Of a DNA stretch of 41,923 nt, positions 12,428-41,923 are shown one piece after another. Position numbers and translations under genes: made by a program. The notes beneath the pieces are model-generated. The model was not told where the DNA came from. It searched no databases and saw only the letters and a list, made by a program, of their open reading frames with translations. Origin of the DNA: a virus (Duplodnaviria; Heunggongvirae; Uroviricota; Caudoviricetes); the IMG/VR virus record IMGVR_UViG_2630968543_000002; one strand, 5' to 3'. Position 1 is the first letter of the stretch. Each line of letters opens with the position of its first letter.

Positions 12428-12758
12428 ATCAGCAGCAGAGCGCAAAGCCGCTCAGAGAGCCAGACAAGCTGCATCTGGTGTGCGTAAGCTGGAGATTGTG
12501 CTTGATGCTCAGGAAATTGAAATGCTTGAGCGTAACTGTGCCGCGCGTCGCCCCGGGCGTGCGCCTTACGAATTTGGTGAGTATATAGCGTTACTGATCC
12601 GCCAAGATGATGCACGCGTGCACGGGCGTATAAAATCGATCAGCAGAAAACGTTGCGGTAAGTGCGGCGAGAGAGTTCCTGTGAATTCATGCCCGTGTAA
12701 TGGTGACTCGCAATGCTGGGTGACTAAAGGCTGGCATGAAACGAAATTAATAGTGTGA
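12420..12758 (+). CDS. Hypothetical protein with C-terminal Cys cluster (CGKCGERVPVNSCPCNGDSQC); last gene before the late operon, possible late-gene regulator (inference)
   Basis: 112-aa ORF; its stop codon lies inside the GTGACATGTCAC palindrome. Confidence 0.5.
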   Translation: MAKSAAERKAAQRARQAASGVRKLEIVLDAQEIEMLERNCAARRPGRAPYEFGEYIALLIRQDDARVHGRIKSISRKRCGKCGERVPVNSCPCNGDSQCWVTKGWHETKLIV

Positions 12759-12766
12759 CATGTCAC
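12755..12766. repeat. Perfect 12-bp palindrome GTGACATGTCAC, copy 1 of 3
   Basis: Direct reading. Confidence 0.7.
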
Positions 12767-15019: not shown

Positions 15020-15031
15020 GTGACATGTCAC
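15020..15031. repeat. Perfect 12-bp palindrome GTGACATGTCAC, copy 2 of 3
   Basis: Direct reading; lies between convergent terL and the minus-strand ORF. Confidence 0.7.
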
Positions 15032-18058: not shown

Positions 18059-18351
18059 CAGATTACGAAGACGATCAACTGAAAGAAGAAAACGCCCGTA
18101 AGCAACGTGACATGGCACAGCGTGAAATTGATGACATTCGCTTTGTCATGAGCAGTGAACAGGGGCGTCGCGTTGTCTGGTCGGTGCTGGAGAAAGGCCG
18201 GGTGTTTTCCGCTATCTCTCCGATGGATGCCATGGCAATGGCATTTAATGAGGGGCAACGCAATCTGGCGCTGGAACTGTTTCAGCGCGTTATGGCGCAT
18301 TGCCCTGAACAGTATTTGAAGATGGCCAAAGAGGCCAGTGAACAGGAGTGA
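18055..18351 (+). CDS. Hypothetical virion-module protein (98 aa)
   Basis: ATGA overlap with the portal stop. Confidence 0.5.
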   Translation: MTDYEDDQLKEENARKQRDMAQREIDDIRFVMSSEQGRRVVWSVLEKGRVFSAISPMDAMAMAFNEGQRNLALELFQRVMAHCPEQYLKMAKEASEQE

Positions 18352-18353
18352 TC

Positions 18354-19049
18354 ATGAGTTTATTTGAGCGTTTGCTGTATCGCCGTCTTTGCAATGAGCA
18401 ACAAGTCGATGGTGGGGCAGCACCGGCTGCGTCAGAACCGTCAGCGCATGCAGGTGATAACCCTGCTCCAGCTGGTGATCCATCACAACAGGAAGGTGAT
18501 AAGCCACAACCTGTTGTTGATGTCGATAAACCTGATGATGAAAAAAAATCTGAAAACGATAAGCAGGGTGAAAAAAAGGACGGCGATAAACCAGAGGGTG
18601 CGCCGGAGAAGTACGAATTTCATGCTGCCGAAGGCGTAGAGCTGGATACAGAAGCGTTGAAGGAATTCGAGCCAGTGGCGCGAGAACTTAACCTGACCAA
18701 CGAGCAAGCGCAAAAGCTGGTTGATGCTTATCCGAAGATTCTGGCAGGTGTTCAGCAGCGCCAGGCAGAAGCCTGGCAGAAAACAACCGAGCAGTGGGCT
18801 GCGGATGTAAAAGCTGACAAAGAAATCGGTGGCGACAAGTTGATTTCTAACCTTAGCGCCGCACAGCGTGCGCTTGACCAGTTCGGGACACCTGAACTCA
18901 AAGAATATCTGAACACCACCGGGCTGGGTAATCACCCTGATCTGGTCAAAACGTTCGTGAAAATCGGAAAGGCGATGTCTGAAGATGGCATGGTCACCGG
19001 TGGTAATGAAGGCCAGCGTAGTGCGGCCGAAGTGCTCTATGGCAAATAA
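18354..19049 (+). CDS. Putative scaffolding / capsid assembly protein
   Basis: Position between portal and major capsid; highly acidic Lys/Asp/Glu-rich N-terminal half; GGAG Shine-Dalgarno. Confidence 0.65.
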   Translation: MSLFERLLYRRLCNEQQVDGGAAPAASEPSAHAGDNPAPAGDPSQQEGDKPQPVVDVDKPDDEKKSENDKQGEKKDGDKPEGAPEKYEFHAAEGVELDTEALKEFEPVARELNLTNEQAQKLVDAYPKILAGVQQRQAEAWQKTTEQWAADVKADKEIGGDKLISNLSAAQRALDQFGTPELKEYLNTTGLGNHPDLVKTFVKIGKAMSEDGMVTGGNEGQRSAAEVLYGK

Positions 19050-24335: not shown

Positions 24336-24799
24336 TGATCGATGTTCAAATTATTCCCGCTACCGAAGAGCATCTTCAGATGATTTTGCCGGATGTTCGT
24401 CAGGCTGATATTGACGAACTGTATGCGGTATCGCTGATGACTACCGAAGATGCGCTGCGCGTTGGTCTGCGCACTGCGACTATGGCCTGGTCAGGATTTG
24501 CGAACGGAGAACTAGTAACCATGTTTGGCGTATCTCCGGCGTCAATGATCGGTGGAAATGGTACGCCCTGGCTGGTCGGTACCAGCCGTATTGAAAAATA
24601 TCAGAAGACATTTCTTCGCCACTGCCGACCTGTATTGCAGCAGATGCTGGCAGTTTATCCGCGCCTGGAAAACTATGTCGACGAGCGAAACCATGTTGCC
24701 AAAGCATGGCTGCACTGGCTTGGATTCAGGCTTGAAGAATCCGCGCCTTATGGTGCTCTTGGTCTTAATTTCCACAGATTTCACATGGAGAGAAAATAA
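24335..24799 (+). CDS. Virion-associated protein (gp13 position)
   Basis: 154-aa ORF; TGATG overlap with the upstream gene. Confidence 0.5.
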   Translation: MIDVQIIPATEEHLQMILPDVRQADIDELYAVSLMTTEDALRVGLRTATMAWSGFANGELVTMFGVSPASMIGGNGTPWLVGTSRIEKYQKTFLRHCRPVLQQMLAVYPRLENYVDERNHVAKAWLHWLGFRLEESAPYGALGLNFHRFHMERK

Positions 24800-25344: not shown

Positions 25345-27857
25345 TGCCAGTCGTACCAACAGTATCCGGACGTCAGGTTGAGAGCCGTGGAGTTCAGTCA
25401 GCAGGCTTGCAGACGTTTTCTCAGCCAGGTATTGGTGATGCTTTTGTTCGGGCAGGGGCAGAGGCAATTGATGTTTTTGGTCAGGCAAAACAGCGTGCCA
25501 ATATCGCTCTGGCTCAGGAGGCATCTCTTAACCTCAGTCAGATAAGCAGCGATCTGCTGAATAATCCTGAAACAGGATTGCTTAATCTGAAAGGGAAAAA
25601 TGCTATTGGAAAAGGCCATGAGTATACGCAGCAGTTTGATGCTCAGGTCGAACAACTGGCTATGTCGCTGCCGGATGAACAGGCTCGTAATGCTTTCATG
25701 CAGCAGGCGCAGCAGCAGCGCATTCAGTTCACTACGCAGGCAGGGCGGCACGAGATAGGGCAAATAAATGCCTACGAAGAAGGCCAGTTTCAGGCTACGC
25801 TGCTGAACAATGGTAAAAATGCCGCAGCATTGTATGGCGACAACGCCGCATACGTATTGGCTAATAAGCAAACTTTCCAGCAAATTGAGGATTACGGCAT
25901 TGCACATGGCTGGAGTGACGAGCAAATCCAGGCCAAGAAAATCGAGTTTAAAGAAGCAACAGCAAAAGCAACTGCTCAAAATGCTATTGGAGCAAACTAT
26001 CTTCAGGTAAGACAGCAAAACGGCGAGTTAAGCGATACTGCTGTTGGATCTCGCCGTGCTGTAGCAGATAGTGGCTCTTCCGATCGTACCCGCGGTATAC
26101 GCAACAATAACCCCGGCAATCTTGAATACAGCAAAACTAATCCGTGGGTTGGGCAGACTGGTGATGATGGTCGCTTTGCCAAATTCGAAACCCCTGAACA
26201 CGGTATTCGTGCATTAGGGCGGAACCTGATGTCGTATCAGCGGCAGGGTATTGATACCGTCAGCGAGATAATTAATCGCTGGGCACCGCCTACTGATAAA
26301 AATGACACTATGTCGTATATCAAAGCAGTGTGCGAACAACTTGGCGTTTCTGCTGATGAGCCTCTCGATGCATCAAATCCTGATACCCTGAAGGCGCTTT
26401 GTGCAGCCATTATCCATCATGAAAACGGTAGCCAGCCATACAGTGATCAGCAGTTAACTGCAGGTGTTAGTGCCGCGCTGGGGCTTTCTCAGCTACCGAC
26501 AAAAAATAAACGTTATACCGGTGTAGCCTGGTTCGATGCTTTAAGTGAATCAGATCAGGCCAGCGTGTTGCGACAGACTGATGCACTAGCCAGACAACAG
26601 CAGGCTGAATATAAAACGATGCTCGACAGTCGGGTTCGCGATGCGACGGCTGCGTATATGCGTGGCGTTGAATTTCCTAACCCACCTGGTGAGGATGATT
26701 TTATTGCAGCTTATGGAGTCAGAGAAGGAAACCTGCGATATACCGAGTTTAAGAATACGCAGATCGCCGGACAGTATATAGGCTCTTTCCGCAACATGCC
26801 GACAAGCAGCATTACAGCATATGTTGAGCAATTACGCCCGGATACTGGTGAGACAGGGGAGGGATATGCGGCACGCGCAGCTCTTTATGACAACGTTGTT
26901 TCGGCTGCAAATCAGGTGATAAAGCAGCGGCAATCGGATCCTGTGCAGTTCTCTCTTGCCGCCGGACAGGCAAAGCCTATCGACATGAGCAATAAGGATA
27001 ACTTTGGACAGAGTGTTGCCTTGCGTGCTGCTCAGGTTAGTGATCTTGCCAAGTCATATGGCACTCCACTGACGTTCTTTTCCAAAGACGAGGCCAATCA
27101 GATCGGTGTTTTCTTTCGTGATGCGCCCGTTTCCCAACAGGCAGCATATCTCGATACCATCAGGCAAAGCACTGGTGGTGGGCAGGTGTATATGTCAGCA
27201 CTACAGCAGATCAGTGCCAACGCTCCATCTGCTGCCGTTGCCGGGATACTGATGGATAAGCCTGGTGGTATTTTGGCAGAAAAAAACTGGTTTAATCCGG
27301 ATGTTTCCGTGTCTCCTGAAACCGCTGCGCAGACAATTCTTGCTGGCGCGGCGGCTCGTAAAGGTACTGATGATGCGAAAGGTATTCCGATGCCTAAAGA
27401 TGCTGATCTTCGCCTTGAGTTTTCTGACATGGTGAAGGATGCATTTGCTGGTGATGCTCAGGGGGCATCAATGGCATACGAGATCGCAAAGGACTATTAC
27501 GCTGGTGTGATGGCGAAAAAAGGCGTGGTATCAGGCGAAATTGACAATGATATCTGGAAACAGGCTGTTAACGTAGCTACAGGTGGCGTGCATGATTATA
27601 ACGGAATGGGGAATGTCCTTTTGCCGTGGGGAATGTCTGCAGAGCAATTCGATAAGCAGGTTAATCAGGCTTGGAATGAACAAGTTGTCGGCACCGGGAT
27701 AAAAACACCGCCTGGTCAGTATGGTTTGCAAAGTTACGGCGATAGTCAGTACCTGGTGAAACTTGGCACTGGTTATCTGCTGAAAGATGATGGTTCTCCT
27801 GTTGTTCTTGATCTGACACAGAAGCGTCAGAGATTCTCCGGAGATATTCCGCAATGA
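25344..27857 (+). CDS. Internal virion / ejection protein (gp15 position) with conserved GIRNNNPGNLEY motif domain
   Basis: ATG at 25344 with GGAGG 7 nt upstream (ORF opens at 25269); about 837 aa. Confidence 0.6.
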   Translation: MPVVPTVSGRQVESRGVQSAGLQTFSQPGIGDAFVRAGAEAIDVFGQAKQRANIALAQEASLNLSQISSDLLNNPETGLLNLKGKNAIGKGHEYTQQFDAQVEQLAMSLPDEQARNAFMQQAQQQRIQFTTQAGRHEIGQINAYEEGQFQATLLNNGKNAAALYGDNAAYVLANKQTFQQIEDYGIAHGWSDEQIQAKKIEFKEATAKATAQNAIGANYLQVRQQNGELSDTAVGSRRAVADSGSSDRTRGIRNNNPGNLEYSKTNPWVGQTGDDGRFAKFETPEHGIRALGRNLMSYQRQGIDTVSEIINRWAPPTDKNDTMSYIKAVCEQLGVSADEPLDASNPDTLKALCAAIIHHENGSQPYSDQQLTAGVSAALGLSQLPTKNKRYTGVAWFDALSESDQASVLRQTDALARQQQAEYKTMLDSRVRDATAAYMRGVEFPNPPGEDDFIAAYGVREGNLRYTEFKNTQIAGQYIGSFRNMPTSSITAYVEQLRPDTGETGEGYAARAALYDNVVSAANQVIKQRQSDPVQFSLAAGQAKPIDMSNKDNFGQSVALRAAQVSDLAKSYGTPLTFFSKDEANQIGVFFRDAPVSQQAAYLDTIRQSTGGGQVYMSALQQISANAPSAAVAGILMDKPGGILAEKNWFNPDVSVSPETAAQTILAGAAARKGTDDAKGIPMPKDADLRLEFSDMVKDAFAGDAQGASMAYEIAKDYYAGVMAKKGVVSGEIDNDIWKQAVNVATGGVHDYNGMGNVLLPWGMSAEQFDKQVNQAWNEQVVGTGIKTPPGQYGLQSYGDSQYLVKLGTGYLLKDDGSPVVLDLTQKRQRFSGDIPQ

Positions 27858-29656
27858 GTTACTTTGGCCTTAATCCAGTAAACCAGAATCAGCAACTTGA
27901 CGAAGCAGCATCAAATCCAGCGGGCTTTAACAGCGATGTTGGTTTTTTCGACAATGCTGTAGGAGCGGCATTGTCTGGTTTGTACTCCGGGCTGGTGGCA
28001 AAGCCAGATCAGTTGCTATGGGCAGGGATGGATAAAATCGTATCCCCGATTGCTCAGTTTATTAACGAAAACACCTCGCTCAATGACACTTCAGTTTCAT
28101 ACATTGCTGAGCAGAGAAAACTAGCAGAGCAGCAGGTTAAGCGGCTGACGCCTGATGCCGCGACAACCGGAACCGCCGGGCAGGTCCTTTATGGGTTGTT
28201 CGATATGGGCGGGCAGGCTGTTGTCGGTACAACGCTCGGTGGTCCGGTCGGAGGTGCTGCGGCGGTAACTTCTCTACAGGGTTTTTCTGAGTTTGAACGG
28301 CTGACAGCACAGGGTGTTGATTTCAGGACGGCGCAGGAAGCTGGATTAGTGCAGGGTATTACTGCTGGTGCCGGAACACTGATCCCTATGAGCCTCGGGT
28401 TACGTGCGGGTGGTGCGCTGGCGGAAGGTGTGGCGGCTCAGCTTGCGCGGACGGGTGAAAGTTCAGTGCGACGCGCTGCAGCAACAGCAGTACGTGCAAC
28501 GCCAGATATTGCCTATGCCGCAGGTACAAATATTGCGTTCGGTATGGCACAGCGTGGGCTTACTGCTAAAACGCTTCGTGATGGTGGCTATAGCGAAATG
28601 GCTAACCAGTATGATGTGTTGGATCGACAGGCAATTGCTATTGATGCTGTTCTTGGGGTGGCGTTTGGTGGTGTCGGCAGATTTATTAACTCTCGCGGCG
28701 AGTCTACAAGCGCACCAAATTTTTCACCAGTTGATATCGATGCTGCACTGGCGGCGAATGCCGCTCATCATGCTGAAATTGATATTGCTCCCGGCGTGCC
28801 GATCAACGTGCTTTCGCGTAATTCACACATTCAGGCTCTGCGAAAAGCCATGTCTGATGTTAGCCAGGGGAGACCTGTAGACGTTGCCAGCATTGTTGAG
28901 TCTGCATCTTTCAGTGAAATTCCTGGGCGCAAGAGTCTGCTGTCTCAGGCAGTTAATGAGGCTCTGTCATCAGTAGATGATGGAGTAACGGCGCGCGCTA
29001 TAGAAAATCGGTTGCTTGAAGAACAGGCCGCACAGCTTTTGCCGCGTGGCGATAGACAGGTTTACCAGTCTGAAATCGCTAATAGCCAACGAATTATTGA
29101 AAATCTCACTGAACAGCGCGCACAAATTCTTGCAGAAGATCCAACCGGTAGCGGTAAGGCTTTATCTCGTGCTCGATCAGATAAACAGGCCAGACTTCGC
29201 GATATTGACCAACGAATCAGGCAGGCACAAGAACGCCTGGAATTTTCTCGTAACGCGTTGGCACCGCATGAGCCTGGCGGTCAGTTTTTTGAAGCTCGAG
29301 CAGAACTGGCACGGCGACTGCAGGTAGAAAGTGAACTTAATGCTCAGGCTGTTTCATTCTATAAAACAGCAGAGGTCAGGACGCCAGACGAAGTAGCTCC
29401 TTTTGAGCCTGATAAAATATTGCAACAGGCAGAACAAAAAATGATGGCGGATCAGGCAGGAGATATTGATCTGCGCATAGCTGAAGACTCGCTGCTTGAA
29501 TCACCTGACATGATAATCACCGTGCTGGATGATGATGGTAATCCACAATCGCGCAGCGCGCGTGAAGTACTGGATGAAGCGAACAGGGAAAGTGAGCAGG
29601 CAATACAGGATTCCAGCCTGTTTGATGTCGCTGTGGCGTGTTTCTTGAGAGGTTAA
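27854..29656 (+). CDS. Internal virion / ejection protein (gp16-like, part 1)
   Basis: 600-aa ORF; ATGA overlap with the upstream gene; Gly/Ala-rich hydrophobic N-terminal third. Confidence 0.55.
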   Translation: MSYFGLNPVNQNQQLDEAASNPAGFNSDVGFFDNAVGAALSGLYSGLVAKPDQLLWAGMDKIVSPIAQFINENTSLNDTSVSYIAEQRKLAEQQVKRLTPDAATTGTAGQVLYGLFDMGGQAVVGTTLGGPVGGAAAVTSLQGFSEFERLTAQGVDFRTAQEAGLVQGITAGAGTLIPMSLGLRAGGALAEGVAAQLARTGESSVRRAAATAVRATPDIAYAAGTNIAFGMAQRGLTAKTLRDGGYSEMANQYDVLDRQAIAIDAVLGVAFGGVGRFINSRGESTSAPNFSPVDIDAALAANAAHHAEIDIAPGVPINVLSRNSHIQALRKAMSDVSQGRPVDVASIVESASFSEIPGRKSLLSQAVNEALSSVDDGVTARAIENRLLEEQAAQLLPRGDRQVYQSEIANSQRIIENLTEQRAQILAEDPTGSGKALSRARSDKQARLRDIDQRIRQAQERLEFSRNALAPHEPGGQFFEARAELARRLQVESELNAQAVSFYKTAEVRTPDEVAPFEPDKILQQAEQKMMADQAGDIDLRIAEDSLLESPDMIITVLDDDGNPQSRSAREVLDEANRESEQAIQDSSLFDVAVACFLRG

Positions 29657-29661
29657 ATTAA

Positions 29662-32136
29662 ATGAGACAGGAATGTATACAAGCGGTCCAGCAGGCGGCG
29701 CAGCGCACGTTAACGGCGCGAGAAATACAGAACATTGAAGACCGCATTTATCGAAATATGCGCTCCATTGCTCGTGATGACCCGATGTCGTGGAGACAAC
29801 TTTCCGAATCAGAGCGGCTATATCGTGCAGCACAATTGGCATCTGAAGAATTACAGCGAGAAGCGGCATTAAAGAAACGTCGTGTGGCCCTCACTATATC
29901 CGCACGTCAGAGATTGGATAAATTTATCAATAGCTATCAAGGGGCTGATGGGAAACTTGGCGCTCTTAACCGTACTATTGCTTTTAATGCAGACGGTAAA
30001 TCGAATTTCCTCTCTGTTGAGTCCAGAACAAAAGCCACTCGTGATTATGCATTGAGTCAATTGCAAGAGGCATTTGAAGCAGTTGATCCTCGCTTTTTTG
30101 GCCTGTTTGAAGATGAAGCTGGCGTGCGTGACCTGGTATATGAAATGCGAGGGCAAAATACTGGCAATGCTAAAGCAAGAAAAGGTGCTAAGGCGTGGAG
30201 AGAAGTGACAGATCTACTGCGCCGCCGGTTTAATGATGCTGGTGGGGACATTGGCTATCTCGAAAACTGGGGAATCCCTCAACATCATTCTATGGAAAAG
30301 GTTGGGGCGGTATCAAAGGATAAGTGGGTTAGCGATGTTATAGGTAAGCTGGATCGCAAATATTATATCCGAGCCGATGGACAACTGATGAACGATTCCG
30401 AGTTGTCTGCATTTCTTGGAGAGGCTTATAACACGATCGCTACTGGTGGGCTGAATAAGCTTACTGATACCGGAATGCGAATTTCAGGCGCACGTGCTAA
30501 CCGTGGTAATACATCACGACAGATACATTTCAAAGATGCAGATTCCTATCTGCAATATCAGCAACTTTATGGCGATCGCTCTCTATGGGAAATCATGGTC
30601 GGTCACCTGGAAGGTATCAGTAAAGATATTGCACTGGTGGAAACATATGGCCCAAACCCCGATCATGTTTTCCGCTCTCTTCTTGATCAGGTGAAGGCAG
30701 AAACGGCAACAGCTAACCCGAGTAAAACCGGTAAAGTCGAGCGGCTGGCGAACAATACAGAGAATCTGTACAACTTTATTTCCGGAAAGACACAGCCTGT
30801 AGCGAATCCGCACATCGCGCGATGGTCTGACAATATCCGCAACTGGCTGGTTGCCAGCAGACTCGGATCCGCGTTGCTGTCATCGTTCTCTGATCTTGGA
30901 ACCATGTATCTGTCTGCGAAGGTGACCAACCTTCCAATGAACCAGTTATTCCGCAACCAGCTTGAAGCTATGGACCCAACGAACCGTACAGAACTTGCGC
31001 GGGCGCGCCGCGCTGGTCTGGCGATGGAATCTCTACTTGGCAGCGTTAACCGCTGGGCGATGGATAATATGGGGCCGTCTGTGTCTCGTTGGGCTGCAAC
31101 GGCGGTAATGCGTGCCAGTGGGCTTACAGCATGGTCAGATGCGCACAAGCGCGCCTATGGCGTAACCATGATGGGAAGCTTGGGAGAAGTAGTGTCACGG
31201 ACACCAGACCTTCGTAGCCTCGATGATTCTGATTTTCGCATCCTGAAAAGCAAAGGGATTACTGACACAGACTGGAGCGTATGGAAGCTGGCGCAACAGG
31301 AGGACTGGGGGAACGGCAATAATACGATGCTGACACCGGAAAGCATTATGCGTATCCCTGATTCAGCAGTTAAACATCTTGGTGAGCCTGAACGCGTGAA
31401 ATTTGAGGCAATGCGTAAACTGCTCGGTGCCATAACTGAAGAAGTTGATATGGCTGTTATTACACCGGGAGCACGTGAGCAACTGATAACCGGTTCTGGT
31501 ATTCAGCGTGGAACATGGAAAGGTGAATTAACGAGAAGTGTTTTCCTGTTTAAATCGTTCCCTATCTCGGTGGTTATGCGTCACTGGTCACGCGCTATGG
31601 GTATGCCGTCTGCTGGTGGGCGTGCGGCATATATTGCGACGTTTATTGCCAGTACGACCATTCTTGGCGCTTTGTCGCAGCAACTTAACGACCTTGCGTC
31701 TGGTCGTAATCCTCGCGAGATGACAGGAGAAGATGCTGCTAAATTTTGGCTTGGTGCTCTACTGAAAGGTGGTGGTCTTGGCCTTTACGGTGACTTTTTA
31801 TTGTCAGATCACACTAGGTACGGAAGCGGCGCGCTGGCGTCGATGCTTGGCCCGGTAGCTGGTCTGGTTGATGACGTAGTGAAGATTGCTCAGGGCATAC
31901 CGTTAAATGCTGTGGAAGGGAAGAGTGAGCAGACTGGTGGTGATCTGGTTAAGCTGGGGAAAGGTCTGATGCCAGGTGCGAATCTCTGGTACTTGAAGGC
32001 GGCTCTCGATCACATGATCTTTAACCAGATGCAGGAGTATTTTTCACCAGGTTATTTGCGTAAAATGGAGCAACGTTCGAAGAAAGAGTTTAACCAGACA
32101 TACTGGTGGCGACCACAGGATGTCACTCCGCAATAA
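29662..32136 (+). CDS. Internal virion / ejection protein (gp16-like, part 2)
   Basis: 824-aa ORF; last gene of the core-protein operon. Confidence 0.55.
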   Translation: MRQECIQAVQQAAQRTLTAREIQNIEDRIYRNMRSIARDDPMSWRQLSESERLYRAAQLASEELQREAALKKRRVALTISARQRLDKFINSYQGADGKLGALNRTIAFNADGKSNFLSVESRTKATRDYALSQLQEAFEAVDPRFFGLFEDEAGVRDLVYEMRGQNTGNAKARKGAKAWREVTDLLRRRFNDAGGDIGYLENWGIPQHHSMEKVGAVSKDKWVSDVIGKLDRKYYIRADGQLMNDSELSAFLGEAYNTIATGGLNKLTDTGMRISGARANRGNTSRQIHFKDADSYLQYQQLYGDRSLWEIMVGHLEGISKDIALVETYGPNPDHVFRSLLDQVKAETATANPSKTGKVERLANNTENLYNFISGKTQPVANPHIARWSDNIRNWLVASRLGSALLSSFSDLGTMYLSAKVTNLPMNQLFRNQLEAMDPTNRTELARARRAGLAMESLLGSVNRWAMDNMGPSVSRWAATAVMRASGLTAWSDAHKRAYGVTMMGSLGEVVSRTPDLRSLDDSDFRILKSKGITDTDWSVWKLAQQEDWGNGNNTMLTPESIMRIPDSAVKHLGEPERVKFEAMRKLLGAITEEVDMAVITPGAREQLITGSGIQRGTWKGELTRSVFLFKSFPISVVMRHWSRAMGMPSAGGRAAYIATFIASTTILGALSQQLNDLASGRNPREMTGEDAAKFWLGALLKGGGLGLYGDFLLSDHTRYGSGALASMLGPVAGLVDDVVKIAQGIPLNAVEGKSEQTGGDLVKLGKGLMPGANLWYLKAALDHMIFNQMQEYFSPGYLRKMEQRSKKEFNQTYWWRPQDVTPQ

Positions 32137-32145
32137 GGATGAGAA

Positions 32146-32286
32146 ATGATTGCTTTTATTCTTGTTGTGTTTGCGCTTGTTGCACTTGGCGTTATGAACC
32201 GTAAATGTATCATTGACGATGGCGAATTTGCTGTTGCAGTTATTTTGATATTATCTGGTGTAGCAGGGTACATAGGCTTGTCATAA
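32146..32286 (+). CDS. Small hydrophobic peptide (46 aa, two predicted membrane helices); not in the ORF track
   Basis: Hand translation MIAFILVVFALVALGVMNRKCIIDDGEFAVAVILILSGVAGYIGLS; AAGGATGAG 5 nt upstream; followed by palindrome and terminator. Confidence 0.35.
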   Translation: MIAFILVVFALVALGVMNRKCIIDDGEFAVAVILILSGVAGYIGLS

Positions 32287-32293
32287 CGTGAGC

Positions 32294-32305
32294 GTGACAT
32301 GTCAC
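32294..32305. repeat. Perfect 12-bp palindrome GTGACATGTCAC, copy 3 of 3
   Basis: Direct reading. Confidence 0.7.
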
Positions 32306-32330
32306 AGGCCGCTTTCGCGGCCTTGTTTTT
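32306..32330 (+). terminator. Rho-independent terminator ending the core-protein operon
   Basis: AGGCCGC-TTTC-GCGGCCT hairpin followed by TGTTTTT. Confidence 0.7.
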
Positions 32331-32370
32331 AACGAATGCCACCGCCGCCCGGACGGGAATCCGCAGACAC

Positions 32371-32391
32371 AAAAAAGCCCGCGGCGCGGGC
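32371..32391 (-). terminator. Rho-independent terminator for the minus-strand two-gene operon
   Basis: GCCCGC-GGC-GCGGGC hairpin followed on the minus strand by six U (plus A-run 32371..32376). Confidence 0.6.
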
Positions 32392-32831
32392 TATTCTTCT
32401 TCATCATAAAAAAGCGGATTGTCGTTTCCATCTGATGAAAGGAAAGGTATGTGTTCTCTTGAAAATCCAACAACGACAATTTCATTATCATTTTTTGCAT
32501 AATGAATGCATTCATTAGAATGCATTCCGCCGGGGTTGAAATTTAAGTTAATGGTATAATTCTTAAATGTGTTTGGATACCATGTTGGCCCACAATGATA
32601 ATGCCAATAATTCTCTTGCTCATAATTGTCTGAGCCGGGAATTTTATCATGGTTATCATCAACCCACGATGGCTTGTTTTTTCCAACAAGCGCCCTTCCA
32701 TTGGCAACATCTTCTAAAAACCTTTGTATGATTTTTATTTCATCGTCAGTAAGGAAAGGTCCGTCTACAGCGAAAGGGGTGTTGCTTTCCCCATTTAGAA
32801 AACTATTAGATATTCTAATGTTAAACTTCAA
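32391..32831 (-). CDS. Hypothetical protein (146 aa), acidic C-terminus, no recognisable domain; second gene of the accessory operon
   Basis: TTG start with AGGAG 6 nt upstream, 20 nt after the stop of the small upstream gene. Confidence 0.5.
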   Translation of the reverse strand: MKFNIRISNSFLNGESNTPFAVDGPFLTDDEIKIIQRFLEDVANGRALVGKNKPSWVDDNHDKIPGSDNYEQENYWHYHCGPTWYPNTFKNYTINLNFNPGGMHSNECIHYAKNDNEIVVVGFSREHIPFLSSDGNDNPLFYDEEE

Positions 32832-33119: not shown

Positions 33120-33812
33120 TCAGAAAAATCCTGCTTTATCGTTGATGTACTCCGCGTGGGTCTCGATATCACGCAGGCATTTGCTCACACCGACGATGTA
33201 GCAGAACATGGTGGTCAGCTCCGCCGCCGCGCCCGATACGTCGTGCCCGTCTTCCTGTAACTGGTTCAGCAGATTCATCAGCAGTGAGTTCTCCGTCAGG
33301 CCGAGAACACCAGACGGCGAGTGAATCAGACTGCGGTAGCCGGGCTTCAGTGGGGCGCTGTAGGTTTTGTTCTCTATCTTCATTGCCTGCATCACTGCTG
33401 ACGCCGTGGCGTTGGCAACCTGGTCGGCAACCATCTTTATGCGTTCTTCCTGCGGGAGCGAGTTTTTAATGTAGCTTCCGGTGCGGCGGATCTGAGGAAG
33501 AACCTCACCTGTAACCCATTCAAGAAATCTGAATGCTCTCGTTCCCTCTGTCATTGCCTCTTTGCAACGCAGAATAAGGATGTAGAGACCTGATTCTGAA
33601 ACGATGGATAGTTCTTGTATTCCACCAGGGGTCTGTATTGAATGCAGCCCCTTTTTGTTCCAGCCTTTTTTATCAAGTTTTCTCGCTTGTGTAACATCAA
33701 TATTCAAAGCATTGCACACATCTTTGGTGACAAACCAAGGTTCTCCGTCAATCATGAACATACGGATCTGGCAGGATGACTCAAAGGAAAAGATGGAAGG
33801 TTTGGTATTCAT
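33120..33812 (-). CDS. Bro-N domain protein / putative antirepressor (Ant-like)
   Basis: N-terminal Bro-N signature (IFSFESSCQIRMFMIDGEPWFVTKDVCNALNI); AAGGTGA 5 nt upstream of ATG 33812 (ORF opens at 33857 with TTG); C-terminal domain paralogous to gene 34959..35216. Confidence 0.75.
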   Translation of the reverse strand: MNTKPSIFSFESSCQIRMFMIDGEPWFVTKDVCNALNIDVTQARKLDKKGWNKKGLHSIQTPGGIQELSIVSESGLYILILRCKEAMTEGTRAFRFLEWVTGEVLPQIRRTGSYIKNSLPQEERIKMVADQVANATASAVMQAMKIENKTYSAPLKPGYRSLIHSPSGVLGLTENSLLMNLLNQLQEDGHDVSGAAAELTTMFCYIVGVSKCLRDIETHAEYINDKAGFF

Positions 33813-33966
33813 GGCGATCACCTTTGTAGTTAGGTTAATCACCACCGCTGAGACCAATCAGATGGTGGTGAACTGTGCAGAGTTGGTCTTACCGGCTACA
33901 AAGGAACCCGGCGCACCTTTCGGTGCCCCCACACAGCCCACCATAGAATAGGTGCGCTTTACACAT

Positions 33967-35411: not shown

Positions 35412-38400
35412 ATGACGGTCTCAACCGAAGTTGACCACAACGAATACACAGGTAACGGCGTTACGACATCGTTTCCGTATACTTTTCGAATTTTCAGAAA
35501 ATCCGACCTGGTTGTTCAGGTGTCTGACCTGAACGGGAACGTAACAGAATTGGTTCTGGATACCGGTTATACGGTAACTGGGGCGGGCACTTATAGTGGC
35601 GGTTCTGTGGTTCTTCCGTCGCCGCTTGCTACTGGATGGAGAATTACGATAGATCGTGTGCTTGATGTAGTGCAGGAGACAGACCTTCGCAATCAGGGAA
35701 AGTTTTTCCCCGAAGTGCATGAAGATGCCTTTGACTACCTGACGATGCTGATCCAGCAATGTTTTGGATGGTTCAGACGTGCATTGATGAAACCATCTTT
35801 GCTTGCAAAATATTACGATGCAAAGCAAAACAGAATTTCTAACCTTGCAGATCCATCACTTGAACAGGACGCTGTAAATAATCGCTCAATGCGTAATTAT
35901 GTCGATGCTGCAATCGCCGGGGTTGTTGGTGGTTTTGGTTGGTTTATTCAGTATGGTTCTGGGGCAGTATACCGAACGTTCCAGGATAAAATGCGTGATG
36001 CTATTAGCCCCAAAGATTTTGGAGCTGTTGGTGATGGTATAAATGACGATTCTACTGCAATAAGCGCGTGCCTTGAAGCCTCATCTCCAGGTTATAAAAT
36101 TGACGGATTAGGGCTTACTTTTAAAGTATCAACTCTTCCGGATGTCAGCCGATTTAAAAATGCTCGTTTTTTATTTGAGAGAATACCGGGTCAGCCTCTT
36201 TTTTATGCTTCTGAAGATTTTATCCAGGGAGAGTTATTTAAAATTACAGATACACCGTGGTACAACGCCTGGACGCAGGATAAAACGTTTGTATATGACA
36301 ATGTCATCTATGCGCCTTTTATGGCTGGAGACCGCCATGGTGTAAATAACCTCCATGTTGCATGGGTTCGCTCAGGAGATGACGGGAAGACCTGGACAAC
36401 GCCGGAATGGCTTACAGATTTACATGAAAACTATCCCACAGTTAACTATCACTGCATGAGTATGGGGGTTGTCAGAAATCGCCTTTTTGCTGTAATTGAG
36501 ACGCGGACCGTGAGCGGAAATAAACTGCAGGTTGCAGAGTTGTGGGATCGTCCAATGAGTCGCAGCCTTCGCGTTTATGGTGGTATAACGAAAGCAGCAA
36601 ATCAGCAAGTCGCTTATATTCGCATTACTGATCACGGATTATTTGCTGGTGATTTTGTCAACTTCTCAAACTCTGGTGTTACAGGTGTTACCGGGAATAT
36701 GACGGTGACTACTGTTATTGATAAAAATACTTTTACAGTTACGACGCAAAATACTCAGGTTGTGGATCAGAATAACGAGGGTAGATACTGGAGTTTTGGT
36801 ACATCATTTCACTCGTCACCATGGAGAAAAACCAGTCTTGGAACTATTCCTTCTTTTGTTGACGGAAGCACTCCTGTTACTGAGATTCACAGTTTTGCGA
36901 CGATTAGCGATAACAGTTTTGCTGTTGGCTACCATAATGGTGATATTGGTCCACGCGAGCTTGGGATACTCTATTTCTCTGATGCTTTCGGTTCTCCTGG
37001 TAGCTTTGTTCGCAGACGCATACCTGCAGAATATGAGGCGAATGCATCTGAGCCATGTGTAAAATATTATGATGGCATTCTGTATCTGACGACCAGGGGG
37101 ACATTAAGTACTCAACCCGGTAGTTCATTGCACAGAAGCTCTGATTTAGGTGCATCATGGAATTCTCTTCGCTTCCCAAATAATGTTCATCACTCAAACC
37201 TTCCTTTTGCCAAAGTTGGCGATGAGCTGATTATTTTTGGCAGTGAGCGCGCATTTGGTGAGTGGGAAGGAGGAGAACCTGATAACCGTTATGCAGGAAA
37301 TTATCCAAGAACATTTATGACCAGAGTTAACGTCAATGAGTGGAGTCTGGATAATGTAGAGTGGGTTAATGTTACTGATCAGATTTATCAGGGCGGAATA
37401 GTTAACTCTGCGGTTGGTGTTGGTTCAGTTTGTATCAAAGACAACTGGCTGTACTACATTTTCGGTGGGGAAGACTTTCTAAACCCATGGAGCATAGGGG
37501 ATAACAACAGAAAATATCCTTATGTTCACGATGGTCACCCGGCTGATTTGTATTGTTTCAGGGTGAAAATTAAACAGGAAGAATTTGTTTCAAGGGATTT
37601 TGTCTACGGAGCCACTCCTAACAGAACGCTTCCTACTTTTATGTCGACGTCCGGCGTGAGGACGGTTCCTGTACCCGTTGATTTCACAGATGATGTTGCC
37701 GTCCAGTCACTGACTGTCCATGCAGGTACATCAGGACAAGTTCGCGCGGAAGTCAAACTGGAGGGCAATTACGCCATTATTGCGAAGAAAGTACCGTCTG
37801 ATGATGTTACCGCTCAGAGATTAATCGTTAGCGGCGGTGAAACAACGTCTTCAGCAGATGGTGCAATGATAACGTTGCATGGTTCCGGAAGCAGTACTCC
37901 ACGTCGCGCGGTATATAACGCACTCGAACATCTTTTTGAGAACGGAGATGTTAAACCTTATCTTGATAATGTAAATGCTCTTGGTGGTCCGGGAAACAGG
38001 TTCTCGACAGTTTATCTTGGCTCCAATCCTGTGGTTACCAGTGACGGAACATTAAAGACAGAGCCGGTCTCTCCTGACGAAGCATTGCTGGATGCCTGGG
38101 GTGACGTCAGGTATATCGCTTATAAATGGCTGAACGCTGTCGCTATAAAGGGAGAAGAAGGGGCGAGGATACATCATGGTGTAATCGCGCAGCAACTTCG
38201 TGATGTTCTTATTTCTCACGGACTCATGGAAGAAGAAAGCACAACATGCCGCTATGCCTTTCTTTGCTATGACGATTATCCCGCAGTATATGATGACGTC
38301 ATTACTGGCCAAAGGGAAATTCCGCTGACTGATAATGACGGGAGCATCATTGTTGATGAGGATGATAATCCAGTGATGGTAATGGAAGACATCATTGAGC

Positions 38401-38531
38401 GCGTTGAAATAACGCCAGCAGGATCTAGATGGGGGGTCAGACCTGATCTCTTATTCTATATCGAGGCAGCATGGCAGCGCAGAGAAATGGATAAGATAAA
38501 AGAGCGGATTCAGTCTCTGGAAGAACGTTAA
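35412..38531 (+). CDS. Tailspike / receptor-binding protein with predicted beta-helix and C-terminal chaperone-like domain
   Basis: 1039-aa ORF; conserved N-terminal particle-binding region (TGNGVTTSFPYTFRIF), pectate-lyase-like start (ISPKDFGAVGDGINDDSTAI); GGAG Shine-Dalgarno. Confidence 0.8.
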   Translation: MTVSTEVDHNEYTGNGVTTSFPYTFRIFRKSDLVVQVSDLNGNVTELVLDTGYTVTGAGTYSGGSVVLPSPLATGWRITIDRVLDVVQETDLRNQGKFFPEVHEDAFDYLTMLIQQCFGWFRRALMKPSLLAKYYDAKQNRISNLADPSLEQDAVNNRSMRNYVDAAIAGVVGGFGWFIQYGSGAVYRTFQDKMRDAISPKDFGAVGDGINDDSTAISACLEASSPGYKIDGLGLTFKVSTLPDVSRFKNARFLFERIPGQPLFYASEDFIQGELFKITDTPWYNAWTQDKTFVYDNVIYAPFMAGDRHGVNNLHVAWVRSGDDGKTWTTPEWLTDLHENYPTVNYHCMSMGVVRNRLFAVIETRTVSGNKLQVAELWDRPMSRSLRVYGGITKAANQQVAYIRITDHGLFAGDFVNFSNSGVTGVTGNMTVTTVIDKNTFTVTTQNTQVVDQNNEGRYWSFGTSFHSSPWRKTSLGTIPSFVDGSTPVTEIHSFATISDNSFAVGYHNGDIGPRELGILYFSDAFGSPGSFVRRRIPAEYEANASEPCVKYYDGILYLTTRGTLSTQPGSSLHRSSDLGASWNSLRFPNNVHHSNLPFAKVGDELIIFGSERAFGEWEGGEPDNRYAGNYPRTFMTRVNVNEWSLDNVEWVNVTDQIYQGGIVNSAVGVGSVCIKDNWLYYIFGGEDFLNPWSIGDNNRKYPYVHDGHPADLYCFRVKIKQEEFVSRDFVYGATPNRTLPTFMSTSGVRTVPVPVDFTDDVAVQSLTVHAGTSGQVRAEVKLEGNYAIIAKKVPSDDVTAQRLIVSGGETTSSADGAMITLHGSGSSTPRRAVYNALEHLFENGDVKPYLDNVNALGGPGNRFSTVYLGSNPVVTSDGTLKTEPVSPDEALLDAWGDVRYIAYKWLNAVAIKGEEGARIHHGVIAQQLRDVLISHGLMEEESTTCRYAFLCYDDYPAVYDDVITGQREIPLTDNDGSIIVDEDDNPVMVMEDIIERVEITPAGSRWGVRPDLLFYIEAAWQRREMDKIKERIQSLEER

Positions 38532-38837: not shown

Positions 38838-39242
38838 ATGTCTGCTCAAGTAACAAGTGAGCAATTAAATCAGTTGCTTAGTTTTGGTTCTCTTGCTGCG
38901 GTTATTGCAGGTGTCCCTCCGGAGGTTGCTTTAGGGGCTTTGGCTGGGGCGGTGATTTTTGTTACCTCTGCAGTAGAGTACCCCATCCGTCGCCGGGTGC
39001 TCCTGTCGATGCTCAGCTTTCTTTGCGGCCTTCTCTTTTACAAACCAGCAGCATCAATTCTTATCGGCATAGCTAGCCTGATCCCTACCATCACGCAGGA
39101 CTCTTTTGAAAAAGGGATTGTTTTCTCTGCAGGCGCATTCGTGTCAGCAATTGTCGCTGTGCGTATTGGTATATGGCTCTATCACCGTTCCGATAATCCA
39201 CGCGAGTTAATTCCGGGGAGAAAAGACGATGGTAACGCATGA
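38838..39242 (+). CDS. Holin (multi-pass membrane protein)
   Basis: 134-aa ORF with several hydrophobic segments and charged C-terminus; AGGAGAAAG Shine-Dalgarno; first gene of the lysis cassette. Confidence 0.65.
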   Translation: MSAQVTSEQLNQLLSFGSLAAVIAGVPPEVALGALAGAVIFVTSAVEYPIRRRVLLSMLSFLCGLLFYKPAASILIGIASLIPTITQDSFEKGIVFSAGAFVSAIVAVRIGIWLYHRSDNPRELIPGRKDDGNA

Positions 39243-39537
39243 GTTTTTTTTGCTTATCACCAATGCAGTTATTTGCACTGGCATAGCAATTCGCGTTGTC
39301 ACATTCCGGCGTAACGGCTCTCAACACCGAAGGTGGGGAGGATGGCTTGCTTATTTCCTGATTGTTGCTGCGGCCAGTATTCCTGTTCGAGTCGCCTATG
39401 CAATCTGGTTACGTACGCCAATGGCTGTGGATTTATCTGAGGTCATTATTAACGCTGTCATGCTTGCTGCGGTTCTTAAAACTCGCGGTAACGTCGTTCA
39501 AATTTTCAAAACAACGAGGTCTAAACATGGAGATTAA
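39229..39537 (+). CDS. Second small membrane protein of the lysis cassette (holin-like or antiholin)
   Basis: 102-aa ORF with three hydrophobic segments; overlaps the holin 3-prime end by 14 nt. Confidence 0.5.
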
Positions 39538-40852: not shown

Positions 40853-41392
40853 TTAATTAAACCAGCTGTCCGATTTGTTCTCTTCTGCTTTGCCCACGCT
40901 TTTCATCAGATCGCGACCGCCTTCAGTCATATTTCTGTTGGCGTCAGCTTCAGATTGCACCACATCGGTTTGCGCAGCTTTGTGCTTCAGTTCCTGATCG
41001 ATAAATTCGTTTTCTCGCTTAACGCGGGCTTCTTCTTTCGCCAGCGCCAGTTTTTGTTTCTGAATCTCTAAGCTGCGTAGCTCATCTTCATAACTTTGAT
41101 CGCGTTTTTTGTCCGCATAGGCTTCGGCGTCCAGTTTATCCTGACGAGCTTTCTTATTTGCCGCTGCCGTTGCCGCTCTTTTGTTAGCGGCGGCCTGGGC
41201 ATTTGCGCGACGTTGCTTCTCTTGCTGGATTTCCCTGTTGCGCTCCGCGACCCATTCGTCATGCTGCCTTTGCTCTTCATTTTTACCTTGCTGTTCCGCT
41301 TCTGCGACAGCAGAGAGTTGATCCTGCAATGATGAGGCGATAGCCGGATAGCTTAAGGAGGCTAAGATGGCGCAAAGAAAAACTTTCTTCAT
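40853..41392 (-). CDS. Secreted coiled-coil protein of unknown function (probable host flank)
   Basis: 179-aa ORF; N-terminal signal peptide (MKKVFLCAILASLSYPAIA); Lys/Ala/Gln/Glu-rich; AAGGAGG Shine-Dalgarno. Confidence 0.6.
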   Translation of the reverse strand: MKKVFLCAILASLSYPAIASSLQDQLSAVAEAEQQGKNEEQRQHDEWVAERNREIQQEKQRRANAQAAANKRAATAAANKKARQDKLDAEAYADKKRDQSYEDELRSLEIQKQKLALAKEEARVKRENEFIDQELKHKAAQTDVVQSEADANRNMTEGGRDLMKSVGKAEENKSDSWFN

Positions 41393-41407: not shown

Positions 41408-41923
41408 TTAGCTCTTTTCAGGACATTTGGTATTTGGCTGAATACGCGTTTCGTTATACGTCGTGGTAATAACAACGGCTAAACCTGTCGTAAACTGGCA
41501 CTCTTTACCCACCTGGGTAGAGGTATACACTTTGGTGCCTTCCTTATAGGTTAAAGAAACACCTTCCACTAAGGTTTTATCATTCACCATAGAACCCGCT
41601 GCCGCGCCTACAGCTCCGCCGCCAACTGCACCTGCCGTCGTTCCGGAATTGCTGCCAGACCCGACGTTGTGGCCGATAACACCGCCAGCGACTGCGCCAA
41701 TAAGCGCGCCGAAGGCTTGTGCGTTCCGTTTATTTTGGGAGTTGTCTACGGCAACTTTTGCGGGAAGAATGGAAATAATATTAACGGTTTTAGTTTCTTG
41801 TTTGGTATTCAGTTGATCGGTTTGATAAACATCGGCAGCATGATCGTCAGCATTTGACTGGCATCCTGCCAGAGTGAATGACGCTAACATTGCCACAGGC
41901 AGAAGACATTTTTTAAATTTCAT
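41408..41923 (-). CDS. Glycine-zipper outer-membrane lipoprotein (SlyB/Pcp-like; probable host flank); start codon at the window edge
   Basis: Lipobox LAGC in MKFKKCLLPVAMLASFTLAGC; Gly/Ala-rich glycine-zipper segment. Confidence 0.65.
   Translation of the reverse strand: MKFKKCLLPVAMLASFTLAGCQSNADDHAADVYQTDQLNTKQETKTVNIISILPAKVAVDNSQNKRNAQAFGALIGAVAGGVIGHNVGSGSNSGTTAGAVGGGAVGAAAGSMVNDKTLVEGVSLTYKEGTKVYTSTQVGKECQFTTGLAVVITTTYNETRIQPNTKCPEKS

Follow-up and report, generated by a model that had tools for sequence, protein, structure and literature searches.

A small membrane-peptide gene in a swappable slot at the end of the structural operon of a phiV10-type prophage

The last ORF of the structural operon in the prophage analyzed here, 46 codons long, is almost certainly a genuine gene for a small membrane peptide, and very probably a piece of swappable accessory cargo. 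The gene as such is already known: it has been annotated in phiV10 since the 2000s and belongs to a family without an assigned function. What is new here is its context, a swappable slot at the operon end that is bounded by a palindrome and a terminator and that holds different small envelope proteins in otherwise closely related phages. The best overall explanation, to which we assign a probability of roughly 0.4, is that the gene is a promoter-less accessory cassette for an inner-membrane hairpin, most likely one that acts in entry exclusion.

Genomic setting of the 46-codon ORF

The window (the whole 41,923-nt stretch of viral DNA analyzed here) is a temperate podophage of the genus Uetakevirus (phiV10/ε15-type), present as a prophage. 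The positions of its features are collected in Table 1. The gene preceding the 46-codon ORF encodes an internal-virion, or ejection, protein of 824 aa that is homologous to phiV10p20, ε15 gp17 and T7 IVP-D, has homologues in 133 phage records (tblastn), and carries glycine-rich, hydrophobic segments in its C-terminal part. A published assignment makes ε15 gp17 the homologue of the T7 ejection protein IVP-D (gp16) (PMC4819975). Downstream of the 46-codon ORF follow the terminator, an ORF for a soluble protein of 146 aa, and a Bro-N antirepressor. The first-pass annotation of this DNA had placed the ORF at the end of a "core-protein operon"; the position at the operon end is correct, but the wording was imprecise, as the upstream product is better called an internal-virion (ejection) protein.

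The stop codon of the 824-aa gene (TAA, 32134-32136) is shared in part with the AAGGA that serves as the Shine-Dalgarno sequence of the 46-codon ORF. Translation from the ATG at 32146 to the TAA at 32284-32286 gives MIAFILVVFALVALGVMNRKCIIDDGEFAVAVILILSGVAGYIGLS. Some Salmonella copies of the gene are annotated with a 9-codon N-terminal extension, which is out of frame in the window (a TGA lies two codons upstream), and the start is therefore fixed at 32146; the resulting 55-aa forms begin at an upstream ATG within the 3' end of the preceding gene, and the core is always 46 aa. Hydrophobic ORFs of this size are rare by chance. In all six frames of the window, two ATG-initiated ORFs of 40-80 aa, the 46-codon ORF included, have a mean Kyte-Doolittle value of at least 1.5, and no equally hydrophobic ATG-ORF of that length occurred in 30 shuffles.

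As the first-pass annotation had described, a palindrome and a terminator directly follow the ORF. The palindrome GTGACATGTCAC occurs in exactly three copies in the window and in three copies in ε15, at syntenic places. The hairpin of the terminator occupies 32306-32323 and is followed by the T-run; folded as RNA, it gives -17.3 kcal/mol (z = -2.3). The stem is common to ε15, and a terminator is annotated in both the phiV10 and the ε15 records.

Table 1. Positions of the 46-codon ORF, its parts and its neighbors in the window
Feature	Position (nt)	Strand	Evidence or remark
Integrase gene	1-1251		followed by genes for MT-A70, RecT, YqaJ and an HTH repressor
Gene for 824-aa internal-virion/ejection protein	29662..32136	+	phrog_684, E = 0; last conserved gene of the structural operon
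Shine-Dalgarno sequence AAGGA	32135..32139	+	overlaps the upstream TAA, 6 nt 5' of the ATG; read from the sequence; conserved 5' edge of the slot
46-codon ORF plus stop, predicted helical-hairpin membrane peptide	32146..32286	+	ORF list; phrog_7892, E = 5.5e-33; dN/dS 0.19
Helix 1, residues 2-19	32149-32202	+	AlphaFold2
Loop K20-D24, between the two helices			AlphaFold2
Helix 2, residues 25-45	32218-32280	+	AlphaFold2
Perfect 12-bp palindrome GTGACATGTCAC	32294..32305	.	conserved 3' edge of the slot
Rho-independent terminator, AGGCCGC-TTTC-GCGGCCT then TGTTTTT	32306..32330	+	scan and fold; closes the structural operon
Tailspike gene	35412-38531		after the structural operon
Holin-like genes	38838-39537		followed by endolysin and Rz; lysis genes at about 38.8-40.6 kb

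A narrow family of known phage genes

The 46-aa ORF is the same gene as PhiV10p21 (YP_512275.1), with 98% identity to the phiV10 copy, and as SPN1S_0020, with 85% identity. The SPN1S record labels it a "putative membrane protein", and the phiV10 record calls PhiV10p21 a [quoted passage not shown] and annotates a terminator after it. The peptide also matches phrog_7892 over its full length, residues 1-46 aligning with profile positions 1-46. In position, length and terminator PhiV10p21, SPN1S_0020 and the phrog_7892 family are equal to the ORF in the window, and nothing material is different.

By tblastn, the 46-aa peptide was found in 15 phage records at 85-100% identity. A word-indexed search of 5.8 billion proteins returned 42 clusters at 74-98% identity, and the clusters that carry organism names belong to Escherichia, Salmonella, Citrobacter and Hafnia. 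With only six clusters at 50% identity in a profile search of 1.84 billion representatives, the family is very narrow. The divergent cluster members that were traced occupy the same genomic position. The place between an IVP-D-type gene and the operon terminator is shared by phiV10, SPN1S, the 47 IMG/VR loci that carry the ORF (L099-L145) and two of the three divergent members traced; in L149 a 92-aa ORF intervenes. Of 5,426 complete E. coli genomes, 53 (~1%) carry the full-length gene in the form found in the window (allele A, see below), where it is labeled by PGAP as a hypothetical protein, and 460 match part of the 231-bp query.

Searches for a functional assignment were negative. The sole Pfam result was a sub-threshold match to DUF5367 (13.5 bits against a cut-off of 25), the 46-aa peptide had no match in NCBIfam or PADLOC, and in PHROGs it matched only its own family, to which no function is attached. 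Neither the search of 5.8 billion proteins nor the profile search of 1.84 billion representatives provided a bridge to a characterized protein. No discussion of the 46-aa gene was found in the literature covered, and the slot proteins go unmentioned in the ZX5 paper. In the phiV10 reporter phage that has been described, recET was replaced rather than the slot locus.

Coding status and selection

A total of 50 DNA copies of the gene were collected for a codon test, and 27 of these were both distinct and intact. Among the 27, variable sites at codon positions 1, 2 and 3 number 26, 13 and 41, respectively, and the pooled dN/dS amounts to 0.19 for the annotated frame and to 1.24 and 2.48 for the shifted frames. 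The 46-codon ORF is under purifying selection. In the most divergent IMG/VR copies (L139 and L140, at 67-70% aa identity) synonymous sites are near saturation (about 30 of 34), yet the turn NRKGIIDDGEF is retained. The length and the loop motif NRKGII[DE]DGEF are maintained down to 44% identity, and the length, start, Shine-Dalgarno sequence and motif of the sense frame are retained in all lineages. These data confirm the earlier reading of the region as a coding ORF with a plausible Shine-Dalgarno sequence; loss of the frame in homologous regions had been named beforehand as the refuting observation, and the frame is instead conserved there.

It could still be supposed that the frame is open by chance, or that the real product is that of an antisense ORF of 106 aa (32052..32372, - strand), which is open in the window and whose wobble-aligned frame has a dN/dS of 0.22. 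The antisense value is the mirror image that constraint on the sense strand would be expected to produce, however, and the antisense frame extends across the terminator as well as into the upstream gene and is broken by stops in divergent copies (inside L139; in L140 and L132 at the border), while the sense frame is conserved. We therefore rejected the antisense product, and chance openness of the frame is ruled out by the dN/dS and by the frame kept across lineages; the probability that the ORF is not a gene is negligible.

The dN/dS of the ORF is ~10-fold above that of the neighboring gene (0.19 vs 0.018), which is compatible with an arms race and equally with weak constraint. Some copies are damaged, with 1-nt indels in six IMG/VR loci (L133-136, L138 and L145) and loss of the stop codon in three others (L129-131). 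Either dispensability of an accessory gene or sequencing errors could account for such copies.

Predicted architecture of the peptide

AlphaFold2, run on the family alignment, models the peptide as a helical hairpin with a mean pLDDT of 92.2 and a pTM of 0.65. As the first-pass annotation had described, two hydrophobic stretches are split by NRKC, which corresponds to residues 18-21. Charged residues (R19, K20, D24, D25 and E27) are confined to the turn, and the C-terminus, ...GYIGLS, bears no charge; nearly the whole peptide would therefore be buried in the bilayer. The peptide probably inserts into the cytoplasmic membrane of the infected cell. The basic residues suggest that the turn is cytoplasmic, although sequence alone cannot decide the topology.

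Conservation is concentrated in two places. In the family alignment K20, I22, I23, D25, E27 and F28 of the turn are invariant, as are G38, A40, G41 and Y42 of a small-residue motif in helix 2. The turn can be written as N-R-K-x-I-I-[DE]-D-G-E-F and the helix 2 motif as S-G-V-A-G-Y-x-G, and the patterns [NE]RKxII[DE]DGEF and GVAGYxG are present both in the alignment and in the divergent members. A Foldseek search against viral models returned the peptide's own family and generic hairpins with E values of about 1; a fold search is weak here, as a 46-aa hairpin cannot discriminate between families.

A cargo slot at the end of the structural operon

With the last 299 aa encoded by the upstream gene as query, 80 IMG/VR loci were fetched, all of them 96-100% identical over this segment. 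Across these loci the interval from the upstream stop codon to the palindrome takes three forms. Allele A, of about 157 bp, encodes the 46-aa hairpin. Allele B, of about 488 bp, encodes a 57-aa two-TM hairpin together with a 98-aa three-TM protein (phrog_3075). Allele C, of 596 bp, contains short hydrophobic ORFs and a protein with a lipobox signal, LLVGC (phrog_3716). The junction CAATAAGGA / CAATAAAAGGAG is common to all three alleles, with the first ORF beginning 9-10 nt after the stop; the Shine-Dalgarno sequence on the upstream stop codon is kept in every allele, and the palindrome GTGACATGTCAC is found 3' of every allele and also in ε15.

Further lineages extend the range of cargo. The Tyrion slot holds a 103-aa two-TM protein, those of ε15 and BUCT554 a 64-aa hairpin (gp18, phrog_29212), those of Klebsiella phages B-type or C-type cargo, and that of an Acinetobacter phage a hydrophobic ORF of 89 aa with two predicted TM segments that resembles, by eye, the 98-aa protein of allele B. 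The slot is absent from Yersinia phage YeP4, in which a reverse-strand gene comes directly next, and from the Pseudomonas, Burkholderia, Ralstonia and Vibrio relatives examined, in which the next gene is a tail-fibre gene. All of the cargo proteins are predicted membrane or lipobox proteins, and none matched a family of known function. Since sister phages have unrelated envelope proteins in this socket, the function of the cargo is taken to be accessory and to act at the envelope.

The slot hairpins of 46, 57 and 64 aa show no detectable relation to one another (hhalign probability below 1%). The ε15 protein gp18 (NP_848226.1) and the 57-aa hairpin of phiv142-3 and Klebsiella phage BUCT711 share with the 46-aa peptide the slot, the two-helix form and the hydrophobic character, but differ from it in length (64 and 57 aa) and in their loops, and have no sequence similarity to it. 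As judged from sequence comparison, the slot hairpins are positional analogues and not demonstrable homologues.

The 46-aa cassette is compositionally foreign. The GC content of allele A is 0.383 compared to 0.49-0.51 for the flanking late genes, and its GC3 is 0.30 compared to 0.45; the value of 0.383 is also below the 0.457 expected for its amino-acid composition under late-operon codon usage. In two divergent loci (L148 and L150) the peptide is 51-59% identical where the neighboring protein is 87-92% identical, and in L149 a 44%-identical member of the family lies behind a 30%-identical, 1129-aa homologue of the upstream protein and a Tyrion-type protein of 92 aa. When the window was compared with SPN1S, the third-position value was 0.72 for the ORF together with the final 150 nt of the gene before it, which is less diverged than the 0.36-0.64 of the rest of that gene; this suggests a recombination tract.

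We compared these properties with the criteria for morons in the Juhala/Hendrix sense, as summarized in PMC3594210. Presence, absence and replacement among close phages are evident from the three alleles and the slotless relatives, and the base composition is deviant, but a consensus scan found no promoter for the ORF itself. The strong terminator 3' of the ORF belongs to the socket common to all alleles and not to the cassette.

The arrangement bears on two further readings of the gene. Its place directly downstream of, and apparent translational coupling to, the 824-aa ejection protein might indicate a cognate partner of that protein: a membrane "immunity" factor or chaperone that would shield the producing cell from premature insertion of the pore-forming IVP-D-type protein, comparable to bacteriocin immunity genes, or an aid to its assembly. 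A very weak match of the Tyrion slot protein to a family of bacteriocin immunity proteins (15.6 bits where the cut-off is 50, E = 0.015) points in the same direction. Against this, identical C-terminal 299-aa segments are found with different alleles in three cases that together cover A, B and C, identical full-length upstream proteins are found with different alleles in two cases, and not one residue of the 824-aa protein is allele-specific. In addition, the slot gene is missing from many relatives that do encode a homologous ejection protein, and frameshifted copies of the gene exist. The slot allele is thus independent of the upstream protein, and we rejected the cognate-partner model as quite improbable.

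As the last gene of the internal-virion-protein block, the ORF might also encode a minor virion component, a hydrophobic peptide packaged with the internal proteins and delivered to the membrane of the recipient. We consider this very improbable: the slot may instead carry unrelated proteins, nothing at all, or a lipobox protein, which implies lipoprotein export and not packaging, and the ε15 record labels gp13-gp17 as virion proteins and gp18 only as a hypothetical protein.

Expression

A consensus scan of the + strand from 27800 to 32146 found no sigma-70-like site above background, a scan that weak or non-canonical promoters could escape. The cassette begins 9 nt before the ATG, too close for it to contain a promoter. 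The simplest reading is that the ORF is co-transcribed and translationally coupled with the ejection-protein operon. The socket would then supply the Shine-Dalgarno sequence on the stop codon of the IVP-D-type gene as well as the palindrome and terminator downstream, and the peptide would be made together with the ejection proteins whenever the operon is transcribed. In the ε15 record, repressor operators are annotated before the terminase, structural and tailspike units; by this annotation, the structural operon would be off in an established lysogen.

The predicted late expression of a two-TM peptide raises the possibility of a modulator of lysis timing, similar to an antiholin or pinholin, that tunes holin triggering or membrane energization. 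The predicted co-expression with late genes, without a promoter of its own, fits such a role, as does the two-helix hairpin of the AlphaFold model, which has the two TM segments of a class II holin or pinholin, and the 98-aa protein of allele B shows a sub-threshold match to PF16079, a family of holins (15 bits, cut-off 29; E = 0.027). However, a complete lysis cassette, with the holin-like genes followed by endolysin and Rz, is encoded elsewhere in the window (Table 1), the 46-aa peptide does not end in the charged cytoplasmic tail that holins and antiholins typically have at the C-terminus and has no holin match in Pfam or PHROGs, and the slot may instead hold a lipoprotein or nothing. A lysis modulator is therefore an unlikely identity for the peptide.

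Comparison with O-antigen modifiers

The first-pass annotation had linked small membrane peptides at this position in related podophages to modification of surface polysaccharide synthesis. Such a peptide would inhibit the host Wzy or another LPS enzyme, as does the alpha-polymerase inhibitor of ε15, and small hydrophobic peptides of this kind are found in other serotype-converting phages, such as Iap of Pseudomonas phage D3, which is comparable to the ε15 inhibitor. The window peptide is likewise a small two-TM peptide from an O-antigen-specific, serotype-converting lineage. The polysaccharide link was not supported by comparison with ε15, in which the inhibitor is at another locus. The ε15 inhibitor (NP_848230.1; gp21-type) is a 66-aa protein with two TM segments that is encoded at 24462-24662 on the opposite strand, downstream of the tailspike and about 5 kb from the ε15 slot position, beside a gene of the O-antigen ligase family (Wzy-like). 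It has a long charged C-terminal tail and is paired with a replacement polymerase gene; the window peptide has no such tail, and no polymerase gene adjoins its ORF. BLASTP gave no alignment between the two at E <= 100, and ε15 carries both the inhibitor and a separate slot gene, gp18.

The hosts of phages with the 46-aa peptide include E. coli O157 and O146, Salmonella Typhimurium and Heidelberg, as well as Citrobacter and Hafnia. The peptide is 85-100% conserved over hosts with different O antigens, in phages whose tailspikes differ. This distribution does not follow O-antigen type, and the peptide is therefore unlike a serotype-specific Wzy inhibitor. Taken together, we regard O-antigen modification as very improbable. 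Of the earlier suggestion that the peptide is a surface-modification or exclusion factor, the polysaccharide part is thus unsupported, and exclusion is left as the most plausible functional class.

A possible role in entry exclusion

An entry-exclusion function for the 46-aa peptide, drawn by analogy with known systems, is possible but tentative. According to this proposal, the peptide would act at the inner membrane to keep out the DNA of related phages, a mode of superinfection exclusion known from T4 Imm, HK97 gp15 and P22 SieA. Of the three, T4 Imm and HK97 gp15 are small inner-membrane proteins that prevent entry of the genome of an incoming phage.

The comparison with P22 is mainly one of position. 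The sieA gene lies 22 nt after the last ejection-protein gene of P22, in an antirepressor-containing region before the tailspike, much as the slot does in the window. SieA, an inner-membrane protein, blocks DNA injection via the ejection-protein conduit, mutations that escape it lie in the ejection proteins, and it occurs in dissimilar sequence types (PMC10883804). Unlike the 46-aa peptide, however, P22 SieA has 162-164 aa and 3 TM segments and is expressed in the prophage; its gene is read from the opposite strand under a promoter of its own, which makes the positional parallel loose. The three SieA types (about 160-200 aa, 3-4 TM segments, motif FxRYPxEAxxFNK) have no homology to the peptide, which lacks the motif (hhalign probability 0.2%).

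A second comparison is with HK97 gp15, a small inner-membrane exclusion protein that is encoded inside the structural operon by a gene of deviant composition, has its own promoter and terminator, is expressed in the prophage and derives from the host YebO family (PMC3594210). The 46-codon ORF resembles gp15 in encoding a small and probably inner-membrane protein, in its place in the structural operon and in its deviant composition, and differs from it in that no promoter of its own was detected. No homology between the two was found, the profile search having returned only the peptide's own family.

Several observations count against exclusion. The peptide has no homology to any characterized protein in Pfam, NCBIfam, PADLOC, PHROGs, the fold search or the hhalign comparison with SieA. 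It has almost no extramembrane mass, so that its contacts would be limited to the bilayer or to a turn of roughly 10 residues. Classical exclusion genes and morons have their own promoters and are active in the repressed prophage, and no such promoter was detected here; as the ORF appears tied to the structural operon, its product may be missing from lysogens, the cells in which exclusion would count most. For classical exclusion expressed from the prophage, the lack of a detected promoter is the chief difficulty.

A further reading is that the slot is a dedicated plug-in socket through which promoter-less envelope cassettes are exchanged by recombination, with the hairpin as a minimal exclusion protein that would bind, within the bilayer, either a membrane-inserting segment of incoming IVP-D-type proteins or a conserved host inner-membrane partner. 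We put this forward as speculative and rather doubtful. If it is true, no smaller phage exclusion factor would be known, and this one would be used during the lytic cycle and not from the prophage.

Implications

Taken alone, the 46-codon ORF is ordinary. Its value lies in its context, a hotspot for accessory envelope functions in near-identical phages. If any of the cassettes blocks DNA entry, it would provide a tiny, tractable probe of how ejection proteins cross the inner membrane, and it would be relevant to the host range of the reporter and biocontrol phages that are based on phiV10 and SPN1S.

Slot contents and damaged copies

Among ATG-initiated ORFs of 40-80 aa, only one in the window besides the 46-aa predicted membrane hairpin (allele A of the cargo slot) has a mean hydropathy of at least 1.5. 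This second ORF (MKFVLLRRTLWFIAVLFF...) lies antisense within a plus-strand ORF and is probably spurious. Some IMG/VR copies of the 46-aa ORF are damaged, with 1-nt indels (L133-L136, L138 and L145) or loss of the stop codon (L129-L131); either pseudogenisation in prophages or faulty assembly could account for them. In phage ZX5 (L005) the slot holds a different content, allele C, where two hydrophobic ORFs in different frames (41 and 43 aa) overlap in the first ~170 nt past the upstream stop. These look like one two-helix hairpin gene split by a frameshift. The allele-C loci are identical (9/9).

Genes between the ejection operon and the tailspike

Comparison with phiv142-3 (L003, 3860-4100) shows that 192 bp of that phage are absent from the window at 32324-32375, between two terminators. 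The extra segment codes on the minus strand for a small signal-peptide protein (MKKAFAALFVLLSLVASTQAFAGRCQHDSD...), and the matching DNA of Stx phage TL-2011b carries the annotation "transmembrane anchored protein". Only a 3' remnant of this gene is retained in the window.

The stretch from the ejection genes to the tailspike holds a second cargo gene of foreign composition, the convergent, soluble 146-aa ORF, whose GC content is very low. Searches of Pfam, NCBIfam and PADLOC returned no match for this ORF; its counterpart in the phiv142-3 ORF list is longer, at 193 aa. The immI region of P22 has the order sieA-mnt-arc-ant and is flanked by gene 16 and gene 9; because an antirepressor gene sits between operon and tailspike in the window as well, the two regions resemble each other in layout.

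Past the lysis cassette, the DUF5384 and glycine-zipper genes are candidates either for phage cargo adjoining the attachment site or for flanking host genes. A TraT-like match of the glycine-zipper protein fell below threshold (28 bits vs a cut-off of 31).

Features of the window discussed in the text
Feature	Coordinates	Strand	Remarks
Palindrome, exact	12755-12766		just 5' of small-terminase-like ORF
Palindrome, exact	15020-15031		just 3' of large-terminase-like ORF, adjoining terminator
Palindrome, one mismatch	18107-18118
Hydrophobic 46-codon ORF	ATG at 18623, running leftward	-	inside plus-strand ORF 18348-19049
Palindrome, exact	32294-32305		end of cargo slot
146-aa ORF	32391-32831	-	phrog_5954; GC 0.358
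Bro-N/Ant-type antirepressor gene	33120-33857	-
DUF5384 protein	40853-41392	-
Glycine-zipper protein	41408-41923	-

A palindrome repeated in the window and in ε15

The perfect palindrome that closes the cargo slot, GTGACATGTCAC, occurs in three exact copies in the window, where by our estimate ~0.003 copies of an exact 12-mer would be expected by chance per genome. Phage ε15 (L147) also has three exact copies (39612, 2142 and 19517), which are syntenic with those of the window; the positions are thus kept despite an identity of only ~28% in gp17, the ε15 homologue of the upstream ejection protein. The palindrome is unlike the annotated operators of the ε15 repressor (ATTACCnnnnnGGTAAT). Its possible roles include that of a binding site for a protein, or of a module-boundary element, at places where operons end.
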